Shown: piece after piece, positions 6,471 through 63,357 of the stretch
Layout of the letters: the number at the start of each line of letters is the position of its first letter
Numbering within the stretch: position 1 is the first letter of the stretch
From: a bacterium
Lineage (GTDB): Bacteria; Patescibacteriota; Dojkabacteria; GCA-016699595
Reading direction: 5' to 3'
Length of the DNA stretch: 64,000 nt
NCBI GenBank assembly: GCA_016699595.1
Contig: CP064982.1
Location: 507,962 to 571,961 of the forward strand
Notes under the pieces: model-generated
What the model was told of the DNA's origin: nothing
What the model saw: only the letters and a program-made list of their open reading frames with translations
Database searches by the model: none
Program-made: the position numbers and the translations under genes

Positions 6471-8393
6471 TTATAATTTTCCTGATATTATCGTATGTAC
6501 CAACGAAGATGGAAAAACCACATGTACATTTCTCTTTATACTTTCAATCATTATATTACCAAATTTGCCAGAAATCAAATTGTCATCCAGATCTTTATCT
6601 ACAAACCTGAGCATTAACAGAATCCCTAGATCCTTTTTTGACATATTTTTTATTTGTGTATTTATAGGATCAGTTAAAAAGTTAAAAAGTTTTTCTATGC
6701 CATATTTATAACCAAGCTCAAAAAAAACTGATTTCATCAAACTTTCAAATAATTCTGATTCAGAAAACCTTCTATACAACGCTTGTTTTCCAAATGTTGA
6801 TAACTGACATTGATTATTTGAAACCTTAGCTAAACTGGCCAATCTTAATAACTCTAACATTTGCGAATTTTGTTTGGACGAAGGTTTACCAATGTCAAAG
6901 TTTACAACTGATTCTAAAGTATGTAATAACTTTGTAACAATCCCATTTTGAAATCTACCCTCTTCATTGTCCTCAAATTTAGTCACTATCAAAACTTTTG
7001 TCAAAATCATATCTGACATTTTATCCGCTCTAAGATGAGTAGCATTCTTAGAATTGTTTTTAATATTTACATTGCCAAGCAAAAACTTCCTGATATCTTC
7101 AAAATGCTTCTTTTCGAGCAATCTATATAGTCTATTTAGAGATTTTTTGTAGTATAGACTATTTCTATTTCTCTCCCTTAGATTTACATTTACAGATGTC
7201 AATTCATATATCGGCAATAATTTTTGAAAAGTGGCCAAATATTGTTCAAAGTTATCATAGCACCTGTACACACTTTGAAACTTTTCGTTTATTCTCTCAA
7301 ACTCTTCAACTACTTCAAATGTAGAAACTTTATTTGGAACACTTGAATAGTTTAACAAATTACTCTCATCACCATCATTCATATATTCAGAGATTCTTAG
7401 AACCTTGTTTATGAAGTCCTTCGTAAAGCTCTCAGTATTCAGAAAAGATTGTTTTGCAGGATGAGATACAAACAAACTTTTGGCAAGAAATTTCAAAAAA
7501 ACTATATCTTCAGCCGATAGTAATTCAAAGTTCAATTTTAATTCAAGATTCTCTATAAATTTCTCAATGGACTTCTCCTCCAATATTTCTAGTTCAAAAT
7601 CAAAAAGATTGAGTCTTATCAATAATTCTCTGCACTTATGAAAAAAAACTACGAGAAGTTCATCGTATTCCAAACTCTGGATCACTTCTATTTTGTCTAA
7701 TGTATTTTGAAATCTATAAAACAAATATAATGAATCAAGTTGGGGTGAATATTTTTTAAATGATTGACCTCGCAGAAGTTTTTGACCCGCCTCTAACTTC
7801 TCAAATCTAGCTGCAACAAAACCTTCGGTAAATTTCCAAATATACCCATCTTTATAAATTCTAGCTAGAAGGATCGCTCCCCTTTTCAAAAAGATTCTAT
7901 CACTTTTGTCAACAGAAAAAACACTTTTCGTTTTGATATTTTCAAGGAAGACTATATTTGCAGAATCAAATCCAACTATTTTGAATTCGGAATAAATTGT
8001 ATGTAGAAAATTCTGGAAAAGTATATATTCCTCAGGGTCAACTACTTTTGCAAAATCAAGATAATGTTCTAGTATTGTTTTTGTCTCTCCACCAATATCT
8101 ACTTTTCCTTCAAAAACCAATCCTTCAAACAAAGCTACAATCTGATCCATATTTGCTACACCTTCAAAATATTGCATAATCTTCAATTCAAAGTACTTAG
8201 GCCAAAACTTCTGTGAAGCAAGCCAAACTCCAATTTTCTTCATCCATCCTGGACCTTGAAATTTTGAAGAAAGGGTAAAATTCGAAATATTTAATTCGTT
8301 TGATTTTGAATCTGGATAATTGTCAAATTTCTCCTTTGCTTTAACTTTTTTTTCAGAAAATGGATCTTGATTTGCCAGTATCTTGTATGACAT
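6471..8393 (-). CDS. Hypothetical protein (640 aa), no recognisable motif
   Basis: Long uninterrupted ORF tightly spaced with neighbours; no Walker or other motif recognised. Confidence 0.5.
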   Translation of the reverse strand: MSYKILANQDPFSEKKVKAKEKFDNYPDSKSNELNISNFTLSSKFQGPGWMKKIGVWLASQKFWPKYFELKIMQYFEGVANMDQIVALFEGLVFEGKVDIGGETKTILEHYLDFAKVVDPEEYILFQNFLHTIYSEFKIVGFDSANIVFLENIKTKSVFSVDKSDRIFLKRGAILLARIYKDGYIWKFTEGFVAARFEKLEAGQKLLRGQSFKKYSPQLDSLYLFYRFQNTLDKIEVIQSLEYDELLVVFFHKCRELLIRLNLFDFELEILEEKSIEKFIENLELKLNFELLSAEDIVFLKFLAKSLFVSHPAKQSFLNTESFTKDFINKVLRISEYMNDGDESNLLNYSSVPNKVSTFEVVEEFERINEKFQSVYRCYDNFEQYLATFQKLLPIYELTSVNVNLRERNRNSLYYKKSLNRLYRLLEKKHFEDIRKFLLGNVNIKNNSKNATHLRADKMSDMILTKVLIVTKFEDNEEGRFQNGIVTKLLHTLESVVNFDIGKPSSKQNSQMLELLRLASLAKVSNNQCQLSTFGKQALYRRFSESELFESLMKSVFFELGYKYGIEKLFNFLTDPINTQIKNMSKKDLGILLMLRFVDKDLDDNLISGKFGNIMIESIKRNVHVVFPSSLVHTIISGKL

Positions 8394-8405
8394 TTACAAA
8401 TTATA

Positions 8406-9107
8406 TCAATTGAAGCGTTCAAAATGAATACTTTCCTCAGAATAGCCCTTTTGAAGTAAGTATTCCTGCAAATCATTTACAGCTTGTTTGCTACCACAAA
8501 TGAAGAAATGAGGAGATTTCAAGTTGCTTAATGTAAGTTTATCTAATCCGTCTTGTATATGCCCAATATTATAGCTACCAAATATCTCTTCACCTTTGGA
8601 TAACCATAATTCATAGTGAAAGTGATTATTCTCTTTCATGAGCTTATCAAAACAGTCCTTATAGTAAATGTCCTTTACAAATCTCAGTCCATGATAAAGA
8701 AACAAATGTCTTATTCTTTGTGAATGAAAATTTATTTCTGTCTCAGGGAGCAAACTTTCTATCATGATTTTTATAGGGGCAATACCAACTCCAGTTGCTA
8801 AGAAAATTAGATCCGAATCGATAGGGATCTTTTCAAGTGTAAATTTACCTATAGGACCTAGCATTTTGATGTTATCGCCAATTTGTAAATTTGATAATAA
8901 GCTTGTAAATCTACCTCCTTCAATGATTTCTATCGTCAAACTAAAGGAATCTTCTAGAATACCTGATATTGAATAAGCCCTAGCAACCTTGTCTAATACT
9001 AAGTTGACATATTGACCAGGCTGTGGATTAAAATTTTGTGGCCTTGCAAAAAAAAATTCGACAACACTTGTTGTCAAATTTATCTTTTTTAATAGCCTTG
9101 TGAACAT
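8406..9107 (-). CDS. Ferredoxin-NADP reductase-like FAD/NAD(P)-binding oxidoreductase
   Basis: RAYSIS (RxYS FAD-binding) and LATGVGIAPIKIM nucleotide-binding motifs; start trimmed to MFTRLL at 9107 to avoid overlap with the upstream gene. Confidence 0.6.
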   Translation of the reverse strand: MFTRLLKKINLTTSVVEFFFARPQNFNPQPGQYVNLVLDKVARAYSISGILEDSFSLTIEIIEGGRFTSLLSNLQIGDNIKMLGPIGKFTLEKIPIDSDLIFLATGVGIAPIKIMIESLLPETEINFHSQRIRHLFLYHGLRFVKDIYYKDCFDKLMKENNHFHYELWLSKGEEIFGSYNIGHIQDGLDKLTLSNLKSPHFFICGSKQAVNDLQEYLLQKGYSEESIHFERFN

Positions 9108-9132
9108 ATACTTTATAAAAAGAGAAAAATTT

Positions 9133-18614: not shown

Positions 18615-19442
18615 TTACAAAGCAGCATCTGCTGCTGATTTCATTTCAGTCCAACTATATGCTCCAGCAAAGTTTTGATAATTCACAAAAAAGCCCGGTG
18701 TCCCAAAATTAGGGCCTACTGCAAAAGTATATGACAGAGTTTGTTCTGATGCCAATCTTGCTTTATACTTACCAGAAGATACACACTCCTTTAACGAGTC
18801 ATTAACTACATTTGTGGGTAACAAAGCATATAGTTTATCAACTAGTGCAATATCATTTTTGACTTCATTGTTGATCACGCTATAAGCAATATTTGTGAAT
18901 AAGGCATTATGAGCTTCAAAAAACTTGCCTTGATCGTATGCACAATACATAACTTGTGTAGCAACTTCACCAGCTCCATGTCCTGGGAAATATAACCAGA
19001 CAAATTGTGCCTTTCCTTCATTTACAAGCTTCTCAATCTCTCTAACAGGTGGAACATAAGTTCCTCCATCGGTATCATATTTAAACCTAGCATCTTGACT
19101 AGCTAGTTCTGGGTTGTATCCTCCTGCAATATGACAATAAGGACAACTTGGATCTGATATTTCTACTATTTTCAATTTAGCATCCTTACTTCCCATGAAA
19201 ATGAGATCATTTCTTTCAAAGAGTGCATCAATTTGTTCATTGGAAATCGTTTTGGTTTCTGCAGTAGTAGTAGTGTTTTGTGAGTTTGCAGTCAAATTCA
19301 AATTTCCACCTGATAGCTTATCTACTTTTGTAGATATAACTATCAAACCAACAAAAATTATGATTGCTGATATAAATATAGTTATAGGAGTCAAAAAAGG
19401 CAATAAATTCACCTCATCCATTTTTGAAGAATTTCTATCCAT
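18615..19442 (-). CDS. DsbA-like thiol:disulfide oxidoreductase, membrane-anchored
   Basis: N-terminal TM helix, thioredoxin-fold CPYC active-site motif. Confidence 0.7.
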   Translation of the reverse strand: MDRNSSKMDEVNLLPFLTPITIFISAIIIFVGLIVISTKVDKLSGGNLNLTANSQNTTTTAETKTISNEQIDALFERNDLIFMGSKDAKLKIVEISDPSCPYCHIAGGYNPELASQDARFKYDTDGGTYVPPVREIEKLVNEGKAQFVWLYFPGHGAGEVATQVMYCAYDQGKFFEAHNALFTNIAYSVINNEVKNDIALVDKLYALLPTNVVNDSLKECVSSGKYKARLASEQTLSYTFAVGPNFGTPGFFVNYQNFAGAYSWTEMKSAADAAL

Positions 19443-21712: not shown

Positions 21713-22960
21713 TCATATGCGTTTCATCTCTTTTGCTAACTCAACCTCATATTCATCTGGAGTTGCTGAGACATAAATTGTTTGATGAAGTTTTGAGTTA
21801 AATTCTTCAAACTTGAGAGGTCTATTGTCAAGTGCAGAAGGAAGTCTGAAGCCATACTCAACTAAGTTCGTTTTCCTTGCTCGATCTCCATTGTACATTC
21901 CACGAACTTGCGGAATAGTCATATGAGATTCATCAACTACAAGCAACCAATCTTTTGGAAAATAGTCAAGAAGTGTGCTAGGAGAACTTCCAACTTCTCT
22001 ACCTTCAATGATTCTGGAGTAGTTTTCGATTCCAGAAACATAACCGACTTCTTGAAGCATTTCAATATCAAAATTAACTCGCTGCTCAATTCTTTTTGAT
22101 TCAACTATTAGGCTCCTATTTTTGAAGTAATCAATTCTTTTGACTAACTCTTCTTGAATTTTTGGAATAGATGAAACAAGTTTTTCTTCTGGAGTTACAT
22201 ATTGTTTTGCAGGAAAGATTTTTATTTCAGTAATGCTGCTTCCCTGGATACTTTCCGGTTTATTTCCAATTTTCTCTCCAGTTAGTGGATGAAATAAGTT
22301 AATTTGTTCCAAAGTATCTCCAAAAAATTCAAGTCGAATTGCATTTTCACCTCCAACTTGATAAATATCTATGATATCGCCTCGAATTCTGAAACTTCCT
22401 GGGATGAAATCAAGCTCAGATCTTTCATACTGAAGATCAATCAACTGATGAATGAGTTTGTCTCTTGGGTAATCTTCTCGAACTTTCAAATTTCTAGTTA
22501 AAGCCATATAATCTTCAGGGTTTCCAAGTCCATAAATTGCAGAAACAGAAGCAACTATGATCACATCTGATCGAGTTAGTAATGACTGAGTAGTTGCAGC
22601 TCTATAGCGCTCAATATCTTTATTTATATCAACTTCCTTTTCAATGTAAAGATCTTTACTTGGAACATAGCTTTCCGGTTGATAATAGTCATAATAAGAA
22701 ATGAAGTATTCAACTGCATTATTGGGAAAAAACTCTTTAAATTCTGAAAATAACTGTGCTGCTAGAGTTTTGTTGTGAGCAAGAACTAGTGTTGGTTTTT
22801 GGATATTTTCGATAACATTTGCAATTGTGAAAGTTTTCCCAGTTCCAGTTGCACCAAGTAAGACTTGATTTTTCAAACCATAATTTATTCCTTGCGTTAG
22901 ATAATCTATAGCTTTTGGCTGATCTCCAGATGGTTTGTACTTAGAATGAAGTTGAAACAT
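21713..22960 (-). CDS. uvrB: UvrB excinuclease subunit, N-terminal 415 aa only (truncated or split)
   Basis: KPSGDQPKAI, LLGATGTGKTF Walker A, YFISYYDYYQPE, VDESHMTIPQ, RLPSALDNRPLKFEEF, IYVSATP; ORF stops where UvrB domain 3 should begin. Confidence 0.8.
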   Translation of the reverse strand: MFQLHSKYKPSGDQPKAIDYLTQGINYGLKNQVLLGATGTGKTFTIANVIENIQKPTLVLAHNKTLAAQLFSEFKEFFPNNAVEYFISYYDYYQPESYVPSKDLYIEKEVDINKDIERYRAATTQSLLTRSDVIIVASVSAIYGLGNPEDYMALTRNLKVREDYPRDKLIHQLIDLQYERSELDFIPGSFRIRGDIIDIYQVGGENAIRLEFFGDTLEQINLFHPLTGEKIGNKPESIQGSSITEIKIFPAKQYVTPEEKLVSSIPKIQEELVKRIDYFKNRSLIVESKRIEQRVNFDIEMLQEVGYVSGIENYSRIIEGREVGSSPSTLLDYFPKDWLLVVDESHMTIPQVRGMYNGDRARKTNLVEYGFRLPSALDNRPLKFEEFNSKLHQTIYVSATPDEYEVELAKEMKRI

Positions 22961-25181: not shown

Positions 25182-28100
25182 TTAAATATACTTCAAGAAG
25201 AAAATCTTCTTCCCTGTTGATGCGAGAGAACCCAAAATCTCTCCAAAATTGATATTTTCAATATCAGAATCAATTATATTTACAGACTCTTCGTTTGAAG
25301 GTCTTTCCGTAGATGAGTACTTCTCAGGTTGTGACTCTACGACTCGATATTGACCAGGCAATAAATCAGTGAATTCATAATAGCCGAATTCATCAGTCAG
25401 AACTATTTGCCCATTTGACAAAGTCATTTTGATACCTGCAAGTGATCTGTCGCCATAATTCTTTGATTTATCGGCATTTTTATCATGATATACATAACCA
25501 GATATTGTATACAGTTTTAATCTAGCATATGCCAAGTCAGTATCCATAACATTAGCAGGTTGCCCAGATGGTAGAAGTGGTGGAGTAGCTACTACTGTTG
25601 CTACATTCACATGCTGACTTGAATCAGTTGGTGCAAGATAAGTTGCAGTACATTGCATACTCTCTCCTTCAGTCAAAACATCTTTCGGACACTGAATATT
25701 ATTTATAAGATTATCTGTAACTGATATATCATGTAGATTTGTATTTCCAGTGTTTGTCACATAGTATGTTATATTCATCATTTCTCCAGCAGATACTACA
25801 ACACCCGGAGGTGTATTTGCATCATCTCCGTTTATTTTCTTAACAATACTAATTGATGAAGATGTACCAACTAAACCTGCATCTATTGTTAAATTATTTT
25901 CTCCGACCATAAGCTCAAATTGTTCCGTATCTCCAAGAGCATCAGAATTTGAATCTGTCAAAAAACTCCCACCATTCTTGTATGTAAATTCATAACCATT
26001 AGGTTTAGCAAACCTTACTTTATAACTTCCATGCAATATATTTTCAAAAAGATAGTGTCCATCTGCATCAGTGAAAACAGTTCCAACTACATTATTCAAG
26101 CTATCCAATAATTCAACTTTCATATTTCCAAACCCAGATTCATCATTATCTTGGATCCCGTTGCCATTCTTATCTAACCAAACAAAGTTACCTATACTTC
26201 CATTAACTACTATTATAGGTACATTATTTGACTGTACTGGTAAAGCTAGACCTGTAGCTCTAAGCATAAACTTGTTTGTATAAATATCTCCTGGTTTATT
26301 CGGATTTGATATAGAAGGTATCAATACCAGCAGATACTTTGATTCTTCATTAGGTAACATTGCACTTGTTTGTATTCTAAAACCAGTAACCTCAGTTATG
26401 TTTGACGGACATCCGGCATTACCGAACTGACCTTGAGCACACCAAACTATACTTGGATTGATGGTTTGTGGGTCAAAGTCTTGAGGAAGCGTCAACAAAG
26501 ATTGTGATTGTTTCGAGTAAAGTATTGCACTTGGATCTACTCCAGATACTTTTGTCAAACTACTCAAGTAAGTAGTTCCTGTAAAATTCGTTGCAGGATT
26601 GCGCCCATCACCATTCCATGGTAGCCAATCGATGAGGTCAGTTCCAGCAACTGGATCACTTCCGGTGTTTTTCATCACAATTTCATACTCAAGTGGTTGC
26701 ATACTCTCAATTAGGGGTGAAATTGCTTTTTTGTTTACCGAAAAAGCAGATGAATTTTCAAACTGTACTGTAGCAGTAGAAGTTCGTACACTTTCAAACG
26801 AATTATCATTATCTGCAGACATAATTGCTTGATTAATTTTGATATCTCCATTACCAATGGTTGCATCTGAAATTGTTTTATATGTAATTTTTGTCAGGGG
26901 TAAACCAGAGGTTACATTACCAAAATTCCAAACTAATGTTGCACTTCCATCATTGTTCACAGTGAATGTTGGTTCACAAGTTACAGGTTGAATCATATCA
27001 GTATCCATACATATAGAAGAGCCATATTGATATCCCAATCCAGCAGGAATTGTATCTACTATTTTTACATTTATTGCTTCACCGGCTGGAGTTACTCCCA
27101 TAGCATCAGTACTTGGTTGCAAGTACCAGTTTATCTCACTCCCTGATAATTTCGAATCATTTTTTGTAGTTAAATCTTTCGTTGTTTTATTTATCCTAAC
27201 TCTAGAACCTGTAACTATTACCCTATCTCCGTGAGTGCCAGTAGCAGTATTTGCATTATAAGAAGGAACTGTTTGCCATGAACTTGGGTCATTTGGATTT
27301 GCATTAAACCAATTCCCACCTGGTATGTACCACTTACCATAATTTGGAACTATATCGCCAGGTTGTGCTGTAGGCAACATCTTATGTTTAATTGCTAAAA
27401 ATTGTACGCCATAACCTGTTTGGGCTATCATATCAGCCTGTTCAGATGCAGTAAAATTATCCCTAAATTTCAACCTAACTTTTGTAACCCGTTCAGGACC
27501 TCCAGGTATACTGTTTAGATCCAAATACCATATTCCCCCAGTAGAGTCATTATCAAAACATGTGCCAAGTCTTTCATCTTCAAAATTACTCCATGTAATT
27601 CCTTGACCATTTAGACCACCTACTCCATATTCAATAACTGCATCAGTATATGATTCCCATAAACTTGAATTTGATGGAATATGAGTAAATGCACCTTCAC
27701 CAGTATTTCCAGGGATTCTATCTATTGAAGAATTTTTGTTATCTATAGTTGTACACATAATCGAACCATTTGGTATATCAGCTATCCCATAATAATACCA
27801 AAGATTCAATGACGTCCAATTTGAATTGGCACTTAAAAACCCATCTCCTGTACGATAGGATGATCCAACATATTCTGCACCCCACCACATTGCACATGAA
27901 TCAGCATTTGCTTCAGTAATAAAGTTACAATTAATCAAATCATCGCTACGATAATCATAATCAGCTTTTTCAACCGAACCTTCAGATGGTCTAGCTATAA
28001 TTTGTTGATACCAGTTTTCAGTTCCCACTAAATCTGACTGTCCTGTTGTTTGTATATTTGTCATTCCACTACCTGGCTCATTACCAACCCCGCCCCAGTT

Positions 28101-29267
28101 TTGCCTTCCTGATATTGCTCCAATTGGCTCAAAGTTATTTATTTTATTCAGAGCAGAGATCTGATACTGATTTGATCCAGAAAACTCTGAATATGGTATC
28201 CATACACCTATTGAATACGAACCAATCCAATTATCTCTTGAAGATAAAGACACACCCGTCCAATCAACAGTTGGGAAATAAGATGGATTTGTATGAAGAT
28301 CAGTAATTGTTACATCAATTAACTGTGAATTACCCATACTAGGAATACAAGTTATTTGCCCTGAATCTTCCACAGATCTGTCAGGCGTTGAATAGCCAGG
28401 GTTATTCCCTCCATAAATACCTAATCTTCCAGCAGGTGCATTATAAGCATAGTGAAGGTTATTCGTAAATCCAGGGGTAGAAAAATAATTTAGTGACAAT
28501 CCGCATTCAAACAATTTTGCATTGGGACTAATCATTGATATATCATCTTGAAAAGTTATTGGTAAGGCAGGAATTTCTGATCCTGCACGAAGTTTCAAGC
28601 CAACTCCATAAGTCCATACTCCTCCAACTACACCATCTACTGTTATGGTTCCTCTAAATGAGGCTGACAATTTCTGTAAATCCACCTTCATGGCAGATGT
28701 TCCAGTTATATCAACTGTTGTTGCATTATCAGTATTTGGTACACCAGAAACTGAAACTGAAGCAGATACATTGAAAGTACTCCCATCAACTAATGTAGGC
28801 AAAGCTTTTACATTTGCTGTGAAACCCAGCGTATCACCCGTAGATTTTGTACCTAAGTTACATGTCAATTGACTTTGATTGTTAACGCCATCACCAGTTA
28901 TTTGTGAACCAGTTCCATTACAAACCAATGGAAGTGCTTCCCATTTATACCCTAGAGGTAAAGGAACTGTAGTCAATGTATAATTATCATAAGGGCTTGG
29001 AACAGTAGCATTTGGATCATTCAGAGAAACATCAAATCGATAGCTTGTTATCTGACCAGCCCGAACTATCTCATTACTATCACCAATGTCATTACCCGAA
29101 CCTGCAACAGAATCAAAAGGTGCAGTACCATCGAATAGTTTCGTGATAGCGATTTCAGGATAAGTGGTCGTGGAATCAGCATTAACTTTCAATTTATAGT
29201 CACTGTAAATATTTATAGATAAAAAAACAAATACAAAAAGTGTTATTAGTTTAAAGAATTTTTTCAT
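25182..29267 (-). CDS. Large secreted surface protein (1361 aa) with SdrD/Cna B-type domains and C-terminal SLASTGK motif
   Basis: Signal peptide MKKFFKLITLFVFVFLSINIYS; B-type repeats (GNFVWLDKNGNGIQD..., YTISGYVYHDKNADKSKNYGD...); C-terminus GSLASTGKKIFFLKYI. Confidence 0.75.
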   Translation of the reverse strand: MKKFFKLITLFVFVFLSINIYSDYKLKVNADSTTTYPEIAITKLFDGTAPFDSVAGSGNDIGDSNEIVRAGQITSYRFDVSLNDPNATVPSPYDNYTLTTVPLPLGYKWEALPLVCNGTGSQITGDGVNNQSQLTCNLGTKSTGDTLGFTANVKALPTLVDGSTFNVSASVSVSGVPNTDNATTVDITGTSAMKVDLQKLSASFRGTITVDGVVGGVWTYGVGLKLRAGSEIPALPITFQDDISMISPNAKLFECGLSLNYFSTPGFTNNLHYAYNAPAGRLGIYGGNNPGYSTPDRSVEDSGQITCIPSMGNSQLIDVTITDLHTNPSYFPTVDWTGVSLSSRDNWIGSYSIGVWIPYSEFSGSNQYQISALNKINNFEPIGAISGRQNWGGVGNEPGSGMTNIQTTGQSDLVGTENWYQQIIARPSEGSVEKADYDYRSDDLINCNFITEANADSCAMWWGAEYVGSSYRTGDGFLSANSNWTSLNLWYYYGIADIPNGSIMCTTIDNKNSSIDRIPGNTGEGAFTHIPSNSSLWESYTDAVIEYGVGGLNGQGITWSNFEDERLGTCFDNDSTGGIWYLDLNSIPGGPERVTKVRLKFRDNFTASEQADMIAQTGYGVQFLAIKHKMLPTAQPGDIVPNYGKWYIPGGNWFNANPNDPSSWQTVPSYNANTATGTHGDRVIVTGSRVRINKTTKDLTTKNDSKLSGSEINWYLQPSTDAMGVTPAGEAINVKIVDTIPAGLGYQYGSSICMDTDMIQPVTCEPTFTVNNDGSATLVWNFGNVTSGLPLTKITYKTISDATIGNGDIKINQAIMSADNDNSFESVRTSTATVQFENSSAFSVNKKAISPLIESMQPLEYEIVMKNTGSDPVAGTDLIDWLPWNGDGRNPATNFTGTTYLSSLTKVSGVDPSAILYSKQSQSLLTLPQDFDPQTINPSIVWCAQGQFGNAGCPSNITEVTGFRIQTSAMLPNEESKYLLVLIPSISNPNKPGDIYTNKFMLRATGLALPVQSNNVPIIVVNGSIGNFVWLDKNGNGIQDNDESGFGNMKVELLDSLNNVVGTVFTDADGHYLFENILHGSYKVRFAKPNGYEFTYKNGGSFLTDSNSDALGDTEQFELMVGENNLTIDAGLVGTSSSISIVKKINGDDANTPPGVVVSAGEMMNITYYVTNTGNTNLHDISVTDNLINNIQCPKDVLTEGESMQCTATYLAPTDSSQHVNVATVVATPPLLPSGQPANVMDTDLAYARLKLYTISGYVYHDKNADKSKNYGDRSLAGIKMTLSNGQIVLTDEFGYYEFTDLLPGQYRVVESQPEKYSSTERPSNEESVNIIDSDIENINFGEILGSLASTGKKIFFLKYI

Positions 29268-36911: not shown

Positions 36912-37340
36912 TTACAAAAGTGATTTTGAAACAAAAACATCAACAAAATTGAATTTTTTATTCAAAGGAACATCCTTCAAAACTTTAATTTCTAACACTT
37001 TTCCTTGCTTTACTTTGGTAGCATTCATCTCAAGCAACTTAGCAACAGTAATTTCATCATTTTCATTGAAATGATCGTTTATATATGATGATTTTATAAG
37101 CACTCTTTGAATATTTAACTTTCTTTGTGACTTAAAACCTCGCAATTTAGGAAGTCTCCTTGAAATTCTGTTTTGACCACCTTCAAAATCTAGCGAAGGT
37201 AATTTCGCTCCAGATCTGCTCATTTGTCCATTCATACCTCGGCCTGTAGTATGTGCACCTTTTCCACTGCCAGCACCTCTACCTACGATCTTTGCCCTTT
37301 TTTGATAATTTTTTTGTTTTGGTAGAGAATGTAAATTCAT
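36912..37340 (-). CDS. rplO: 50S ribosomal protein L15
   Basis: GRGAGSGKGAHTTGRG glycine-rich motif. Confidence 0.95.
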   Translation of the reverse strand: MNLHSLPKQKNYQKRAKIVGRGAGSGKGAHTTGRGMNGQMSRSGAKLPSLDFEGGQNRISRRLPKLRGFKSQRKLNIQRVLIKSSYINDHFNENDEITVAKLLEMNATKVKQGKVLEIKVLKDVPLNKKFNFVDVFVSKSLL

Positions 37341-37350
37341 TTGAATAGTA

Positions 37351-37947
37351 CTATTTTTTCAACATAGTTAAACCTTTCATAGTTGCATAAGCATTTGAAA
37401 CTGGATTTGAACAACCAAGTTGCTTTGTTAAAATATCACTTACACCAGCCATTTCCAATACTTTTCTAACTGGTCCCCCAGCGATAATACCAGTTCCAGG
37501 AGCTGCTGGTTTCAACATCACTTTTGCAGCACCAAACTTCACAGTTATTTCATGAGGTATTGTCCTACCTTTCAAATTTACTTTAACTAATTTCCGCTTA
37601 GCTCTTTCAAGTGCTTTTTCCTGAGCTATTTTAGTGTCAATTCCCTTACCAGAACCAATTGCTAATCTACCTTTTTTGTCGCCAACGACCATAAATACTG
37701 ACATCCTCATTCTTTTTCCTCCAGAATGCACCTTTGTTACTCTTTTCATTTTCAGCAAAACATGATCAAGTTCCTTTTCTTTCTTTTGAGATGATTGTTG
37801 AGTAGTATTTGGAGCAGAAACCCTACCTTGTATAAGGTTTGAAACCCCTTGTTTTCTCCTTTGTACAATTCGTTGTCTGTTACTATCAACTTCATTCGTT
37901 TTTGAAGCTAGTTGTGCTTGGTTTTCAGTTATCATTTTATCATCCAT
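37351..37947 (-). CDS. rpsE: 30S ribosomal protein S5 (with N-terminal extension)
   Basis: uS5 core MVVGDKKGRLAIGSGKG...GTGIIAGGPVRKVLEMAGV; only 10 nt from rplO, so no room for an L30 gene. Confidence 0.95.
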   Translation of the reverse strand: MDDKMITENQAQLASKTNEVDSNRQRIVQRRKQGVSNLIQGRVSAPNTTQQSSQKKEKELDHVLLKMKRVTKVHSGGKRMRMSVFMVVGDKKGRLAIGSGKGIDTKIAQEKALERAKRKLVKVNLKGRTIPHEITVKFGAAKVMLKPAAPGTGIIAGGPVRKVLEMAGVSDILTKQLGCSNPVSNAYATMKGLTMLKK

Positions 37948-43568: not shown

Positions 43569-43915
43569 TATATTGCAAAACCTTCAATACTATCACCCTT
43601 CGCTAGTTTCACTAAATATCGTTTTTTAGAATCTGTAATTCGGAAATTTCTAGTATTTCCAATTCGCTTTTTTTTACCTCTAATTGATACTGACCTTATA
43701 TCTACGACTTTCACCTTGTATAAATTAGCTATCTCTTTTCCAACAATTATTTTATTCGATCTTGACTTCGACGATTCTTTTTTGGTCACAACAAAACTAT
43801 AAATTCCGTCTTTTGCGAGCAATATTGATTTTTCATTTATTATAGGTTTCAAAAATTCTGAACCTTTATCAATATCTACTGCACCTGTTTTTTTTACTTG
43901 GTTTGCTTTTGCCAT
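43568..43915 (-). CDS. rplW: 50S ribosomal protein L23
   Basis: uL23 family sequence, conserved position. Confidence 0.9.
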   Translation of the reverse strand: MAKANQVKKTGAVDIDKGSEFLKPIINEKSILLAKDGIYSFVVTKKESSKSRSNKIIVGKEIANLYKVKVVDIRSVSIRGKKKRIGNTRNFRITDSKKRYLVKLAKGDSIEGFAI

Positions 43916-44529
43916 TAACTTTCGTATCTAGCCTCTAAGCTTTTGATTGACTCTTCAGTAAATATTACTTTACCATAATTTATAATGTCATAAACTGACA
44001 ATTCTGATAAATTTGCTACTTTATATCCCTTGAGATTTACGAAAGCTTTGTAAATCATAGGTTCATCACCACTTTGAACAATCAGTAATTTTTTGAAGTT
44101 CAATAACTTGATAAATTCATTAGCTTCCTTCGTTTTCGTAAAATCAAACTTATCCTTCGATACATACAACCCATCCGAACTAGCAACCATATTCAAAGCC
44201 GACAACATAGCAAGCAATCTTAACTTTTTCGACAATTTTCTTTTGTAATTCCTATCATTTTTAGGTCCAAACACTGTTCCACCACCTCGTAGCAATGGCG
44301 ATTTGACAGATCCTCTTCTAGCATTTCCAGTTCCTTTTTGCCTGTATAGTTTTCTAGTAGAGCCTGTAACATCTCCCCTATCTTTCGTATGTGCATTTGA
44401 CTCTCTTTGGTTCCCTAGATAAATCTTGACCGATAGTGCAACCAAGTCAACATTTGGTTCAATATCAAGAAATTTATAATCTTTTTGTTCAACTACTTTT
44501 CCTGTTTTGTTTAATACATTAACTTTCAT
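43915..44529 (-). CDS. rplD: 50S ribosomal protein L4
   Basis: uL4 family sequence, conserved position. Confidence 0.9.
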   Translation of the reverse strand: MKVNVLNKTGKVVEQKDYKFLDIEPNVDLVALSVKIYLGNQRESNAHTKDRGDVTGSTRKLYRQKGTGNARRGSVKSPLLRGGGTVFGPKNDRNYKRKLSKKLRLLAMLSALNMVASSDGLYVSKDKFDFTKTKEANEFIKLLNFKKLLIVQSGDEPMIYKAFVNLKGYKVANLSELSVYDIINYGKVIFTEESIKSLEARYES

Positions 44530-44531
44530 AA

Positions 44532-44912
44532 CTAAATTGCATTAATTGCATAATACAAATCATTAATACTAAGATTAAAAGCCTCAATAAAACTTTCACT
44601 TCCATCTTCTGTAGAACCTTCACTGATTTTAACTAAATCCTCATTTACAGTATCAATTTTATTTTTGATCTCAACAAAAAACACTTCACATTCTTCGTCA
44701 ACTTTCAAACTCAAAAACAATTTGTCTTCATAGTTTTGCGACAAAATTCTTTGATTTATGCCTAGCTTTACATCATTTACAGACCGACTCAAAATGTACC
44801 TACAATTTTCCTTATTCAGTACATTTTCAAACCTTTCAGTTTTTTCATAAAAAAAGAAAGATAAGACAAAACACAAAATAAGAAAAGCAAATGAAAAAAT
44901 AGCCTTCAACAT
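44532..44912 (-). CDS. Hypothetical small membrane-anchored protein embedded between rplC and rplD
   Basis: 126-aa ORF spaced 2-3 nt from both ribosomal genes; N-terminal hydrophobic segment AIFSFAFLILCFVLSFFFY; no recognisable family. Confidence 0.5.
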   Translation of the reverse strand: MLKAIFSFAFLILCFVLSFFFYEKTERFENVLNKENCRYILSRSVNDVKLGINQRILSQNYEDKLFLSLKVDEECEVFFVEIKNKIDTVNEDLVKISEGSTEDGSESFIEAFNLSINDLYYAINAI

Positions 44913-44915
44913 AAT

Positions 44916-45527
44916 TTATTGCTTTCTTGCCTTTTTCAAAAAAATATAAGAACCTTTCATTCCAGGAACAGCACCCTTTACAAGGATAATTTTATTTTCC
45001 CTATCATACTTAACTATTTGCAAATTTTTTACAGTCACTTGATGGTTACCAAATTTCTTAGGCATTCTTCGGCCCTTGTGTACATGTCCAAAAGTTTGAC
45101 CCTGAGCAATAGATCCTATCGACCTATGTTTTGTACTTTGTCCATGAGTTTTCGGTCCACCTTTAAAATGATATGCCCTAACTACACCTTGAAACCCTTT
45201 GCCTTTACTAGTACCTGTGACATCTACAATATCGCCTTCTGCAAGTTCTGAAGCATAATCATCACCAACATTCAAACCTTCAACAATTGTTCCAAATTCT
45301 TTAATATACTTATAGGATTTACCAATCCCAAATTGGTTTTTTTCTGGCTTATTTGAATTTTTCTTTACATCTTTACCAACAACAGTTGACTCGTAACCAT
45401 CAGTTTCTTTCGACTTAGCACCCAAAAAAATATTATCCGCCACATCTATTACAGTACAAGGCACAACATTCCCACCGTCTTCAAATATCTGAATCATATT
45501 CTTTTTTGTTCCTAAAATAAAATTCAT
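44916..45527 (-). CDS. rplC: 50S ribosomal protein L3
   Basis: uL3 family sequence, conserved position after rpsJ. Confidence 0.95.
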   Translation of the reverse strand: MNFILGTKKNMIQIFEDGGNVVPCTVIDVADNIFLGAKSKETDGYESTVVGKDVKKNSNKPEKNQFGIGKSYKYIKEFGTIVEGLNVGDDYASELAEGDIVDVTGTSKGKGFQGVVRAYHFKGGPKTHGQSTKHRSIGSIAQGQTFGHVHKGRRMPKKFGNHQVTVKNLQIVKYDRENKIILVKGAVPGMKGSYIFLKKARKQ

Positions 45528-49636: not shown

Positions 49637-51844
49637 TCAATGAAAAAGAGAGTGTATTAAAGAAAGTAGTACATTCATCTTACCAGTACTAGCTAGAGAT
49701 GCATTGATACTAATACTAACATCCGTACTCCCCAAAACTCCTGCTATACTCTCTTTCGATACGGTTAGCATGTAGCTACTACCTGTTAGGTTTGCATTTG
49801 ATACACAACTTACACTACTTCCTGTTGCTGGTGTAGGTGTACATGTAAAGTTTGGTATAGTAACCTTATCTCCTACTTCCGTTACCACAACTACTGTAGG
49901 CTTGGTACTGTTCGTACTTGATAAGATTTCTACACGGGTACTTGTTTGTATAACTAAATTCAATACAGTCGATCTTGCTGATTCTTGTCCTGATCCATTT
50001 GTATCAGTATAACTGAGTACATAACTAGCATTTGTTACTGGGAATATCAAATTCAATGTGACTGGTCCAGTAGTTGTACATGTATAAGTTGTGAGTAGGT
50101 CATTACCACTATACACTTTTAGAGTATTTCCTACTTCACTACATATCAAGCTTACATCTGGTGTATTGTCTGATGTGACATTGTCAGTAGAAGATATACC
50201 TGTATCGCTACTAGTTAGCAGGTCAATCATTACAGGTTGAGTTGGTGGGGTACTTTCACTTACATACACATTGAAATTTTTGTCAAATACTCCCCCTAGG
50301 TTATCTGTTACTCTGATACATAGACTGTAGATACTTTTCGTTTCATAGTCTGGTTGTACATTTAGTCTTAGGTTGTTTGTTGATATATTGAAACTTCCAT
50401 CATCTAATCCTGGTACTGCACATGATAGGGAGTATGTATATGGTGAGTCTCCTTCTGCATCTGTTGCTGTCAGTACTCCAACTAGGTATGGTGATACTAT
50501 ACTCTCTGTTACTACATTATTACTTAGGCTTATGTCAGTAGGATCTTCGTTAGTATAGGTTACAAATACATCTACTATTGAATTTGTATCCCCAGGAACG
50601 AGGTTGTTAGCATCGGAAGTGAATGTTACAAATCTTCCGTCTGCAGAAATTGAAGAGAATCCAGAAAAATTATTTCCTTCTACTCCACTACTACTTACCG
50701 ATACTCTTTCTACAGTATCAGTATCTCGATCATATACAAAAATATCCTCAGTAACATTGGCATCACCAGGGACTAAATTGTTAGCATCAGAAGTGAATGT
50801 TACAAATCTTCCATCTGTAGAGATTGAAGGTACATATGAGTAGTCATTACCTTCTACCCCAGTACCACTTACTGATACTCTTTCTATATTGTCAGTATCT
50901 CGATCATATACAAATACATCTGCCATTGAATTCGTATCTCCAGGAACTAAATTGTTAGCAGCAGAAGTGAATGTTACAAATCTTCCATTTGTAGAAATTG
51001 AAGGTTCATATGAACCATCATTACCCTGTACTCCACTACTACTTACCGATACTCTTTCTACAGTATCAGTATCTCGATCATATACAAAAATATCCTCAGT
51101 AACATTGGCATCACCAGGGACTAAATTGTTAGCATCAGAAGTGAATGTTACAAATCTTCCATCTGCAGAAATTGAAGGTTCATATGAATCAATATTACCC
51201 TGTACCCCACTACTACTTACCGATACTCTTTCTACAGTGTCAGTATTTTGATCATACACAAAGATATCATCTCTAGCATTTGTATCTCCAGAAACTAAAT
51301 TGTCAGCTCGTGAAGTAAATGTTACAAATCTTCCATCTGCAGAAATTGAAGGTTGATATGAAACATGATTACCCTCTACCCCAGTACCACTTACTGATAC
51401 TCTTTCTATACTATCAGTATCTCGATCATACACAAAAATATCAGCTCTAGCATTTGTATCACCAGGGACGAGGTTATTAGCAGCAGAATAGAATGTTACA
51501 AATCTCCCATCTGCAGAAATTGAAGATTCATATGAGTAGTCATTACCTTCTACCCCAGTACCACTTACTGATACTCTTTCTATACTATCAGTATCTCGAT
51601 CATACACAAAAATATCAGCTCTAGCATTTGTATCACCAGGGACGAGGTTATTAGCATCGGAAGTGAATGTTACAAATCTTCCATCCGTAGAGGTTGAAGA
51701 TAAATATGAACCATCATTACCCTGTACTCCAGTACTATCAACTGATATTCTCTCTACATATCTTGTAGTAGCTGCATACGTAGGAAGGGTAAATATACCA
51801 AGTAGCAATAGTGTGTATGTTGTTAATTTGAGCAGTGTTTTCAT
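49637..51844 (-). CDS. Secreted surface protein with ~7 tandem 59-aa PD40/TolB-like repeats and C-terminal SLASTGK motif
   Basis: Signal peptide MKTLLKLTTYTLLLLGIFTLPTYAA; repeats of ERVSVSxxGVxGNxxSYxPSISxDGRFVTFTSxANNLVPGDTNxxxDIFVYDRDTD; C-terminus ASLASTGKMNVLLSLIHSLFH. Confidence 0.7.
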   Translation of the reverse strand: MKTLLKLTTYTLLLLGIFTLPTYAATTRYVERISVDSTGVQGNDGSYLSSTSTDGRFVTFTSDANNLVPGDTNARADIFVYDRDTDSIERVSVSGTGVEGNDYSYESSISADGRFVTFYSAANNLVPGDTNARADIFVYDRDTDSIERVSVSGTGVEGNHVSYQPSISADGRFVTFTSRADNLVSGDTNARDDIFVYDQNTDTVERVSVSSSGVQGNIDSYEPSISADGRFVTFTSDANNLVPGDANVTEDIFVYDRDTDTVERVSVSSSGVQGNDGSYEPSISTNGRFVTFTSAANNLVPGDTNSMADVFVYDRDTDNIERVSVSGTGVEGNDYSYVPSISTDGRFVTFTSDANNLVPGDANVTEDIFVYDRDTDTVERVSVSSSGVEGNNFSGFSSISADGRFVTFTSDANNLVPGDTNSIVDVFVTYTNEDPTDISLSNNVVTESIVSPYLVGVLTATDAEGDSPYTYSLSCAVPGLDDGSFNISTNNLRLNVQPDYETKSIYSLCIRVTDNLGGVFDKNFNVYVSESTPPTQPVMIDLLTSSDTGISSTDNVTSDNTPDVSLICSEVGNTLKVYSGNDLLTTYTCTTTGPVTLNLIFPVTNASYVLSYTDTNGSGQESARSTVLNLVIQTSTRVEILSSTNSTKPTVVVVTEVGDKVTIPNFTCTPTPATGSSVSCVSNANLTGSSYMLTVSKESIAGVLGSTDVSISINASLASTGKMNVLLSLIHSLFH
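50524..51769. repeat. Tandem ~177-nt repeat array (about 7 units) inside the PD40-repeat surface protein gene
   Basis: Some adjacent units are near-identical at nucleotide level over more than 100 nt (e.g. around 51377-51480 versus 51554-51657). Confidence 0.7.
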
Positions 51845-51898
51845 GTGAAAATTATTTAAGTTGATGCTAAACAATGCAATTTTATGTTAAATGCAATT

Positions 51899-62236: not shown

Positions 62237-62812
62237 CTAATTTCCTACGCTAACAAGCGAGTAAAAGTTTATATTTAAGCTATATGTTCCATTACCAGTC
62301 TGACTTATACCAGTAATCTCAACTCCCCTTGGATACCTTTCAATATCATGAATAAATTTTGCGAAGTTAGATTCATCATTTCTTGATTTGATGTCGATAG
62401 AAAAGGATTTATAGGAGAGCGTTTGATAAGCTTCACCTACACCTATTATACTAGTTTCAAAAGAAAGCATATCAAACCCAGAGACATTGGCAATATCTGC
62501 TAAATTTTGTATCAATTCTTCTTCTACGTGATCCTCAACCATTCTAACTTTAACCAATGAGAAACTAGCTTTATTTTCTTCAAACTTGTCACTTAAAACT
62601 CTAAGAGTCTCAATCTTTTGGTTCATATCACTAAGGTACTGTGTATTGACTACGATTTCATTTTTGATTCTTGTAATTTTCAATATTGTAGGTCTCACAG
62701 TCAGAAGAAAAAGAAGTAAAGTAATTAGAATGCTCAAAAATAGGAGCAAAAAAGTTTTTTTCTGAGTTGATTCAAGTATGTCAGTTAGTTTTGAAGAAAA
62801 TGATATATTCAT
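62237..62812 (-). CDS. Bitopic membrane protein, PilO-like (type IV pilus assembly)
   Basis: N-terminal TM, predicted coiled coil, C-terminal domain; overlaps the upstream PilN-like gene by 4 nt. Confidence 0.4.
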   Translation of the reverse strand: MNISFSSKLTDILESTQKKTFLLLFLSILITLLLFLLTVRPTILKITRIKNEIVVNTQYLSDMNQKIETLRVLSDKFEENKASFSLVKVRMVEDHVEEELIQNLADIANVSGFDMLSFETSIIGVGEAYQTLSYKSFSIDIKSRNDESNFAKFIHDIERYPRGVEITGISQTGNGTYSLNINFYSLVSVGN

Positions 62813-63357
62813 ATTTGATTGTCAATAACTTCAATTTCACTAAATTCTTTGTCCAAGATTAGCTCTCCAGAAAGCGAAGCTACTATTGCCCCTTCCTTGT
62901 CTGGTGTATAACTAGCCAAAACTACATTTTTTGTATACTTTGATTCTTTAAGCATTCGTTCTATTTCTTGAATATTTGAAGGTGTCGAAACGATACTAAT
63001 CTCAAAAGATTTTCCTTTTGCAATCGTAATATTCATTTTCTTGAAATCAGGTAATTTCGAGAATAAATCAACCCAAACATTTTCATATATAAAAATATTT
63101 GAACTTAGTTTAACTAAGTCATTTAGTTTGGCCTGAGCATCGCGTAATTCAGCTTCAGAATCTTGATAAACCATAAGTATTCGCTCTTTTTGCTCGATTT
63201 CTTCTTTCAAATCATTTGACTGTCGGTCTAATATTACCCTATATCCAAAACTAATTATAATAACTATTTGTACAAAGAGAATTAAAATCCTCACAGTTCC
63301 AGTGAGCCAAAAATAAATTTTGTCCCAAAAGGGAATTACAGGTCTAGCTGACTTCAA
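62809..63357 (-). CDS. Bitopic membrane protein, PilN-like (type IV pilus assembly)
   Basis: Short cytoplasmic N-terminus, TM RILILFVQIVIIISFGY, coiled coil, C-terminal domain. Confidence 0.4.
   Translation of the reverse strand: MKSARPVIPFWDKIYFWLTGTVRILILFVQIVIIISFGYRVILDRQSNDLKEEIEQKERILMVYQDSEAELRDAQAKLNDLVKLSSNIFIYENVWVDLFSKLPDFKKMNITIAKGKSFEISIVSTPSNIQEIERMLKESKYTKNVVLASYTPDKEGAIVASLSGELILDKEFSEIEVIDNQI

Follow-up and report, generated by a model that had tools for sequence, protein, structure and literature searches.

In the cell-wall sorting signal as described, a sequence motif is followed by a hydrophobic segment that spans the membrane and by a cluster of basic residues at the C-terminus (bioRxiv 10.1101/2023.06.07.544157; PMC5569036), and it is through this tripartite signal that annotation pipelines and experimenters recognise sortase substrates. 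LAxTG is the motif of class E sortases and of the actinobacterial housekeeping sortase (PMC5148588), a source that bears out what the initial annotation of the DNA studied here had said of this motif. That DNA, referred to as the window, is a stretch of 64,000 nucleotides from a member of the Dojkabacteria, within the Patescibacteria or Candidate Phyla Radiation (CPR) (positions 507,962 to 571,961 of contig CP064982.1, assembly GCA_016699595.1), and it encodes two unrelated surface-type proteins, here proteins 1 and 2, in which the same heptapeptide, SLASTGK, stands a few residues from the C-terminus. Similar to proteins with LPXTG and LAXTG signals (TIGR01167, PF00746; class E in Actinobacteria), both have a Sec signal peptide and an exact LAxTG within 20 residues of the end, right after Ig-like stalk domains, and belong to families that are usually so signed. 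In contrast with those signals, the window tails comprise 9 and 14 residues rather than 29-43, have neither hydrophobic segment nor basic cluster and match none of the hidden Markov models for such signals. The shared motif is real, and we consider the chances roughly even that SLASTGK and its short tail constitute a minimal LAxTG sortase signal.

Other described systems resemble the pair in part. Protein 1 has B-type and CnaB-like prealbumin-fold domains ahead of its C-terminal signal, as do SdrD of Staphylococcus aureus, UafA of S. saprophyticus and the pilins BcpA, SpaD, EbpB and RrgB; unlike these it has no recognisable A-region, serine-aspartate (SD) repeats or YPK motif, and it belongs to an organism of CPR type, neither Firmicute nor Actinobacterium. 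The YLP-box, or ultrashort_CTERM, likewise consists of a very short motif at the C-terminus, lacks a membrane-spanning segment and is carried by secreted proteins with PD40 or SdrD_B repeats, but it reads [FY]LP[LV][VI]x[RK] at the very end, whereas the window has SLASTGK followed by 8-13 residues. In the Clostridium difficile proteins CD0183 and CD2768 (SPxTG) a sortase-type pentapeptide is combined with a substandard retention tail, and in vivo SrtB neither cleaves these proteins nor anchors them (PMC5569036). The tails of proteins 1 and 2 are even shorter and, in contrast to the C. difficile signals, follow an extended motif common to two unrelated proteins.

Both open reading frames (ORFs) were as first described, 25182-29267 (1361 aa) and 49637-51874 (745 aa from a TTG), and the interval 25182-25226 corresponds exactly to the LASTG, tail and stop of protein 1, LASTG starting at 25226. 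The presence of SLASTGK near the C-terminus of both proteins was confirmed from the translations. The genes and their terminal elements are as follows.

25182-29267, minus strand: gene of protein 1, 1361 aa (QQR93321.1, IPJ91_02585, annotated 'hypothetical protein'), predicted secreted adhesin-like protein of SdrD-B/CnaB type
25209-25229, minus strand: SLASTGK of protein 1, residues 1347-1353; predicted scissile bond between T1351 and G1352 if a sortase acts
25185-25211, minus strand: tail of protein 1 after G, KKIFFLKYI, 9 residues, longest uncharged run 4; TAA stop at 25182-25184
49637-51844, minus strand: gene of protein 2, 735 aa from the ATG at 51844 (QQR93355.1, 'PD40 domain-containing protein')
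49679-49699, minus strand: SLASTGK of protein 2, residues 716-722 when counted in the 735-aa form
49640-49681, minus strand: tail of protein 2 after G, KMNVLLSLIHSLFH, 14 residues, 13 of them uncharged, no terminal K/R; TGA stop at 49637-49639

The C-terminus of protein 1 reads ...NINFGEILGSLASTGKKIFFLKYI up to the stop (last part GSLASTGKKIFFLKYI) and that of protein 2 reads ...INASLASTGKMNVLLSLIHSLFH (longer stretch ...SISINASLASTGKMNVLLSLIHSLFH; last part ASLASTGKMNVLLSLIHSLFH). Among the C-terminal 25-residue stretches of all 69 proteins encoded in the window, SLASTGK is the sole 7-mer in common; a shared 7-mer has a chance expectation of 0.0033 and was reached in 5 of 2000 random sets. 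In the six frames of the window there is no further ORF with L[PASG]x[TS]G near its end. The codons for the heptapeptide differ at five of its seven positions between the two genes, indicating that identity has been held at the peptide level and does not stem from a recent duplication of DNA. Haft's criteria for a C-terminal sorting signal are a position near the C-terminus, repeated occurrence in a genome and a minimum of three invariant signature residues (bioRxiv 10.1101/2023.06.07.544157); here there are two occurrences in 64 kb, seven invariant residues and a distance of 9-14 residues from the end. Independent assemblies reproduce both termini. Logan contig L086 (SRR11674035) contains the 3' end of the protein 1 gene within a 9293-bp stretch of 100% identity, and the protein 2 tail was found again in a strain variant (L001/L002, two other runs, 93-98% DNA identity), where it differs by a single synonymous change and again ends at the TGA.

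Explanations by which a longer tail might have been overlooked were considered and rejected. An alternative code, with read-through of the TGA that ends protein 2, is contradicted by the use of TGA to end 7 of the 69 window genes (TAA ends 47 and TAG 15), among them ruvB and pth at normal lengths, while conserved genes are intact, none being interrupted by an in-frame TGA; the code is thus the standard bacterial one. Read-through would append LLLNYSNLMLE, which has no basic end. A frameshift or homopolymer error is likewise rejected, as no frame past either stop gives a membrane-spanning segment with basic residues, and the independent assemblies agree.

The relatives of protein 1 show what a complete signal looks like in this family. 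Close full-length homologues are few, with only three among 5.8 billion proteins. P0001 and P0002, both on low-GC contigs, end in [VI]RTG[AG], 19 uncharged residues and then KK or RK, and the gene beside P0002 (L004, 7-516, plus strand) encodes a protein that ends in LPRTGG, a transmembrane segment and RKSKK. P0005, P0011, P0013 and P0014 end in LPxTG, as do more distant full-length relatives from Actinobacteria. The C-terminus of P0006, from the actinobacterium Cnuibacter, is NLASTG, 22 uncharged residues and RRRR; its LASTG is identical to that of proteins 1 and 2. Among the best 150 relatives of the last (SdrD_B) domain, drawn from a library of 1.8 billion proteins, 22 end with L[PAS]xTG, and 29-43 residues always follow the G. 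These complete signals indicate that the family of protein 1 is commonly sortase-anchored, and that the window tails, whose unusual shortness had been recognised in the initial annotation, lie far outside the normal range.

Full-length signals do occur in settings related to the window, on other low-GC contigs, L004 above being one case and a Gracilibacteria protein, from a metagenome-assembled genome (MAG), another (L007, 6223-6759, minus strand; LVPTG, transmembrane segment, KK). In another Patescibacteria MAG a 610-aa protein with a hydrophobic, signal-like N-terminus (L012, 13532-15364, plus strand) ends ...HNLPLTGGVIIY, that is, in LPxTG and five residues. This short tail is the same pattern as in the window, although it may mean nothing, chance alone being expected to give about two such cases in the 1.45 Mb that were scanned.

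Many homologues of both families carry, at the very C-terminus and without a membrane-spanning segment, the ultrashort [FY]LP[LV][VI]x[RK] ending introduced above.

PD40 homologues with this ending: P0037, P0049, P0055, P0068, P0105, P0115, P0127
SdrD_B homologues with this ending: P0141, P0144, P0152, P0156, P0164, P0174, P0182, P0210, P0231, P0233, P0248, P0258, P0277

Of six such tails scanned, only that of P0115 matches the NCBIfam models NF050076 ('sort_motif_YLP') and NF053834 ('ultrashort_CTERM'), and the tails of proteins 1 and 2 match neither. The existence of these models indicates that putative C-terminal sorting motifs without a membrane-spanning segment are already recognised by curators. 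We found no paper on the YLP-box or its processing enzyme, and no literature on LAxTG or short-tailed signals in CPR.

The architecture of both proteins, as read from family and fold matches, is that of Sec-exported surface proteins, with protein 1 a putative fibrillar adhesin of SdrD-B/CnaB type and protein 2 a predicted PD40 beta-propeller on an Ig-like stalk. The N-terminal signal peptides that had been ascribed to both are apparent by inspection: each combines a basic n-region with a hydrophobic core of about 14-15 residues and a cleavage site of small-x-small type. Upstream of its motif, protein 1 is organised as follows.

29178-29267, minus strand: Sec signal peptide, residues 1 to about 30, with basic n-region, 15-residue hydrophobic core and cleavage between VNA and D, by inspection
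26208-29177, minus strand: conserved N-terminal region, residues 31-1020, no Pfam match; 28-51% identity to P0001, P0002, P0003 and P0006
25872-26198, minus strand: first SdrD B-like domain, residues 1024-1132; PF17210 E=1.1e-43 (two stretches), PDB matches SdrD 10ps (E=1.8e-29) and UafA 3irp
25578-25859, minus strand: DUF7507/DUF11-type Ig-like domain, residues 1137-1230, family-model match
25311-25469, minus strand: last prealbumin-like domain (SpaA or second SdrD_B), best-matched core residues 1267-1319, last modelled strand to about residue 1343

The signal peptide is MKKFFKLITLFVFVFLSINIYSDYKLKVNA, with D as the first residue after the cleavage site. Residues 31-1020 are presumed to be the ligand-binding part; the AlphaFold model of this region is poor (mean predicted local distance difference test score (pLDDT) 53) and unfit for a fold search, and the region has no match in Pfam or the PDB, with neither an IgG-like N2-N3 ligand-binding A region nor SD repeats recognised. 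The whole protein scores 89 bits against NF012181, whose cutoff is 2500, and contains no YPK pilin motif. The last 341 residues were modelled (pLDDT 72) as three beta-sandwich domains, the closest fold neighbours being BcpA (Foldseek 3.7e-13), SpaD, EbpB and RrgB, followed by SdrD, UafA and the Bacillus anthracis TIE protein. All of these neighbours are sortase substrates. The model gives no structure to residues 1347-1361 (SLASTGKKIFFLKYI; pLDDT<50), its last strand ending at about residue 1343, so that the motif appears to be a free appendage about three residues past the last domain.

Protein 2 differs in its parts, which precede the motif in this order.

51773-51844, minus strand: Sec signal peptide MKTLLKLTTYTLLLLGIFTLPTYA, cleavage before A, by inspection
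50582-51762, minus strand: PD40 beta-propeller repeat array, 174-nt unit, 6.8 copies, 83% matches
49949-50512, minus strand: stalk with cadherin-like and Big_13 Ig-like matches

The 745-aa form of protein 2 results from an upstream in-frame TTG at 51874; the NCBI model has 735 aa and is 100% identical to P0015 (QQR93355.1). Within the stalk the Big_13 domain (49949-50236) is above threshold (34.8 bits, cutoff 27) and the cadherin-like match (50297-50512) is below it (22.5 bits, Pfam cutoff 28.8); about 100 residues past the Big_13 domain have no family match. The number of PD40 copies varies between strains that are otherwise 93-98% identical (L001, L002), giving a protein of 735 aa in one and 537 aa in the other, and such fast repeat variation is typical of exposed surface proteins. 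A metagenome scan with the C-terminal 227 aa of protein 2 returned unrelated giant Big_13 proteins only, the tail being present in none. A separate word-indexed homologue search with these residues returned nothing, not even the identical P0015, and negatives from that kind of search for low-complexity or Ig-like queries are unreliable. Proteins 1 and 2 are both acidic and have cysteines in close pairs. A DsbA/MdbA-like thioredoxin is encoded in the window at 18615-19442, and this family has been tied to CPR surface and pilus proteins by Meheust et al. (PMC6744442); paired cysteines and thioredoxin together fit oxidative folding outside the cell.

The reading of SLASTGK and its tail as a minimal LAxTG sortase signal draws on the occurrence of an identical heptapeptide, encoded by different codons, at an equivalent position in two unrelated secreted proteins, and on the sortase-type character both of the C-terminal domains of protein 1 and of the complete signals in its homologues. 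It is favoured, too, by the position of the motif outside the last folded domain of protein 1, by agreement with Haft's criteria, by the paired cysteines and the thioredoxin, and by the occurrence of a sortase family in over half of all CPR genomes (PMC6744442). If this is correct, both proteins would be exported by Sec, after which a sortase encoded elsewhere in the genome would cut between T and G, form a thioester with the threonine and transfer the protein to a peptidoglycan precursor. The last Ig-like domain would then be left almost flush with a thin wall, without a Pro/Ser-rich linker to span the wall, an arrangement suited to a thin one, while the lysine-plus-hydrophobic tail would serve as leaving group and, at most, as a weak tether at the membrane interface in place of the usual stop-transfer anchor. 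The genome's own sortase, the cleavage of the motif and anchoring without membrane retention are steps that we infer. Both proteins have alanine at position 2 of the pentapeptide (L-A-S-T-G), as in class E substrates, and the pentapeptide lies close to the C-terminus, 9 and 14 residues from the end; assignment of the putative enzyme to class E, which hangs on that one alanine, cannot be counted as supported.

Several results weigh against this reading. No membrane-spanning stretch follows the motif, the longest uncharged runs being 4 and 13 residues as against 19-23 in the signal-bearing relatives, and there is no C-terminal basic cluster, protein 2 lacking both K and R over its final 10 residues and protein 1 having three K that are interspersed in KKIFFLKYI and come after no transmembrane segment. 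Neither tail matches TIGR01167 or PF00746 at E<=10, whereas the tail of P0006, used as a control, passes TIGR01167 with 17.0 bits (cutoff 15.9); nor do the whole proteins match an anchor model at E<=1 (NCBIfam) or E<=0.01 (Pfam). As proteins 1 and 2 thus fail on three of the features that define the canonical signal, they should not be filed as ordinary LPXTG-anchor proteins, though they may function in the same way. The precedents for deficient tails are discouraging: Schneewind et al. reportedly found that staphylococcal protein A is secreted when its hydrophobic and basic elements are deleted, and CD0183 and CD2768, with their weak hydrophobic and charged tails, are neither cleaved nor anchored, though their peptides are cut in vitro (PMC5569036). 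Only two examples of the window's signal are known. Furthermore, no sortase was found in the 64-kb window (none of its long ORFs contains T[LIVM]x[TS]C, and PF04203 matches none of the 20 non-ribosomal proteins scanned), and neither a sortase nor a further LASTGK protein occurs in the 5.4 kb past its right end that are covered by Logan contigs. Sortase families are present in more than half of CPR genomes, but their presence is near-universal in Microgenomates and patchy in other CPR (PMC6744442). The initial proposal that both proteins are candidate sortase-anchored adhesins therefore stands in part: they are secreted multidomain proteins of surface type, and the domains and homologues of protein 1 are of the sortase-associated kind, whereas two of the three parts of the signal are missing and TIGR01167 and PF00746 fail.

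The search for a sortase was extended to other loci. None lies beside the homologues on the contigs of P0001, P0002 and P0003, and the only sortase found among 86 loci is a WD40-sortase fusion on the non-CPR contig L028. Sortase catalytic domains (LTLVTC or LTLITC) are attached C-terminally to PD40/WD40 beta-propellers in P0042 (PD40 and PF04203) and at L028 11184-12776 (minus strand), both from non-CPR genomes, probably of Chloroflexi type.

It could be argued that LASTG is a relic, inherited from sortase-anchored ancestors (possibly from Actinobacteria or other monoderms) that have since lost the retention part of the signal, and that the proteins are now secreted or held non-covalently with the motif unprocessed. 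The absence of both retention elements from the tails and of a sortase from the window and the 5.4 kb past its right end agrees with such decay, as does the genome reduction typical of CPR; weak tails abolish sorting in C. difficile (PMC5569036), and an actinobacterial homologue with the same LASTG and a full tail fits descent by truncation. This scenario, however, requires that two unrelated genes each lost the tail independently and yet kept the same seven residues, including the S before and the K after the pentapeptide, despite synonymous divergence, whereas an unselected remnant should drift and a 7-mer match has a chance expectation of about 0.003. The tail is also unchanged in the strain with remodelled repeats, although the close relationship of that strain gives this little weight. 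We regard the relic explanation as unlikely. A signal with no sortase behind it, in which SLASTGK and the short hydrophobic tail are recognised by another enzyme, such as a protease for C-terminal processing or a sorting enzyme as yet undescribed, and the likeness to LAxTG is convergent, can point to the curated precedent of NF050076 and NF053834 (the P0115 tail), to the [FY]LP[LV][VI]x[RK] endings on many homologues of both families, to a conserved unit of seven residues that is longer than the sortase pentapeptide, and to the failure of the canonical anchor models on both tails. It is, however, quite improbable in view of a core that is an exact LAxTG, equal to the pentapeptide of the true homologue P0006, and of a protein family that is overwhelmingly sortase-associated; in addition, no candidate enzyme is encoded beside either gene, and neither tail is matched by a YLP-box model.

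The enzyme might also be that of another organism. Cultivated CPR bacteria are epibionts, often on Actinobacteria. The epibiont's adhesin could then be ligated through its LAxTG to the host wall by an actinobacterial class E sortase, the short tail avoiding entrapment in the epibiont's own membrane, an arrangement that would account for the missing membrane anchor; Actinobacteria are among the sources of the closest signal-bearing full-length homologues, and LAxTG is the motif of their housekeeping sortase (PMC5148588). It is very improbable all the same, as a 150-kDa protein whose motif lies about three residues past the last folded domain, without a linker, could hardly reach a sortase under the host wall and, once the signal peptide had been cleaved, nothing would hold the protein's other end on the epibiont. 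Coincidence or sequence error, finally, is scarcely credible. Only two instances are known, a chance L[PA]xTG near the C-terminus occurs in about 1 per 1000 proteins and two cases at chance level were seen in 1.45 Mb of unrelated loci; identity at seven of seven positions, however, has an expectation of about 0.003, and both proteins are secreted and of surface type. Together with the reproduction of both 3' ends in independent assemblies, this expectation effectively refutes the explanation.

A broader formulation covers either kind of enzyme. SLASTGK with 8-13 residues might be a genuine CPR sorting signal without a membrane-spanning segment, processed by a sortase or an undescribed enzyme, and would then add an 'ultrashort' class as the third, after tripartite signals and the YLP-box; we consider this unlikely, and its extreme variant, ligation by a host class E sortase, much less likely than an ultrashort signal in general. 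Were it true, this class would be invisible to current annotation models and would mark adhesins of episymbiotic attachment. Processing of the two tails would mean that the retention module is dispensable in at least one CPR lineage, would change the prediction of surface proteomes for uncultivated episymbionts, and would make proteins 1 and 2 concrete candidates for attachment factors. If the tails are not processed, they represent a decaying anchoring signal in a reduced genome, which would be ordinary.

The remainder of the window is in keeping with its lineage. Its GC content is 33.5%, and it contains the S10-spc-alpha ribosomal protein cluster, in which the genes for S5 and L15 lie 10 nt apart with no L30 gene between them (36912-37947, minus strand; genes assigned by sequence inspection only). 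This arrangement, so assigned, is a typical hallmark of CPR/Patescibacteria and agrees with the small single-contig genome (761,814 bp). GatA is at most 46% identical to that of any species representative scanned, and its best matches are scattered among Saccharibacteria, Gracilibacteria and Levybacteria/Daviesbacteria, indicating a deep, sparsely sampled lineage. In the S10 operon a 126-aa ORF with a hydrophobic N-terminal segment (44532-44912, minus strand) stands between the ORFs read as rplC (44916-45527) and rplD (43915-44529); its sole family match, to ArlX, is weak (E=0.0027).

Other genes of the window include a UvrB-like gene (21713-22960, minus strand) of just 415 aa, which is ended by a TGA right after a ...YVSATPDEYE motif, 93 nt ahead of ftsX, and apparently lacks the helicase and UVR portion at the C-terminus; the same 415-aa gene is called in Logan contig L086. 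The RNA genes found in the window are limited to two adjacent tRNA-Met (CAT) genes at 18324-18397 and 18483-18557 (minus strand). A type IV secretion-like cluster (6471-12924, minus strand) comprises a VirB4/TraG-type ATPase (9133-11433), a PrgI-family protein (12115-12924) and unassigned ORFs at 11440-12111 and 6471-8393. A monoderm-type type IV secretion system has reportedly been described for Patescibacteria, and the cluster may correspond to it; its VirB4 and PrgI genes prompted the idea that the tails of proteins 1 and 2 are type IV secretion signals, which was ruled out because both proteins have Sec signal peptides. Two small membrane-protein ORFs at 62237-63357 (minus strand) adjoin an FtsK gene, and one of them weakly matches PilO (E=0.005); they may be parts, or what is left, of a gene set for type IV pilus assembly.

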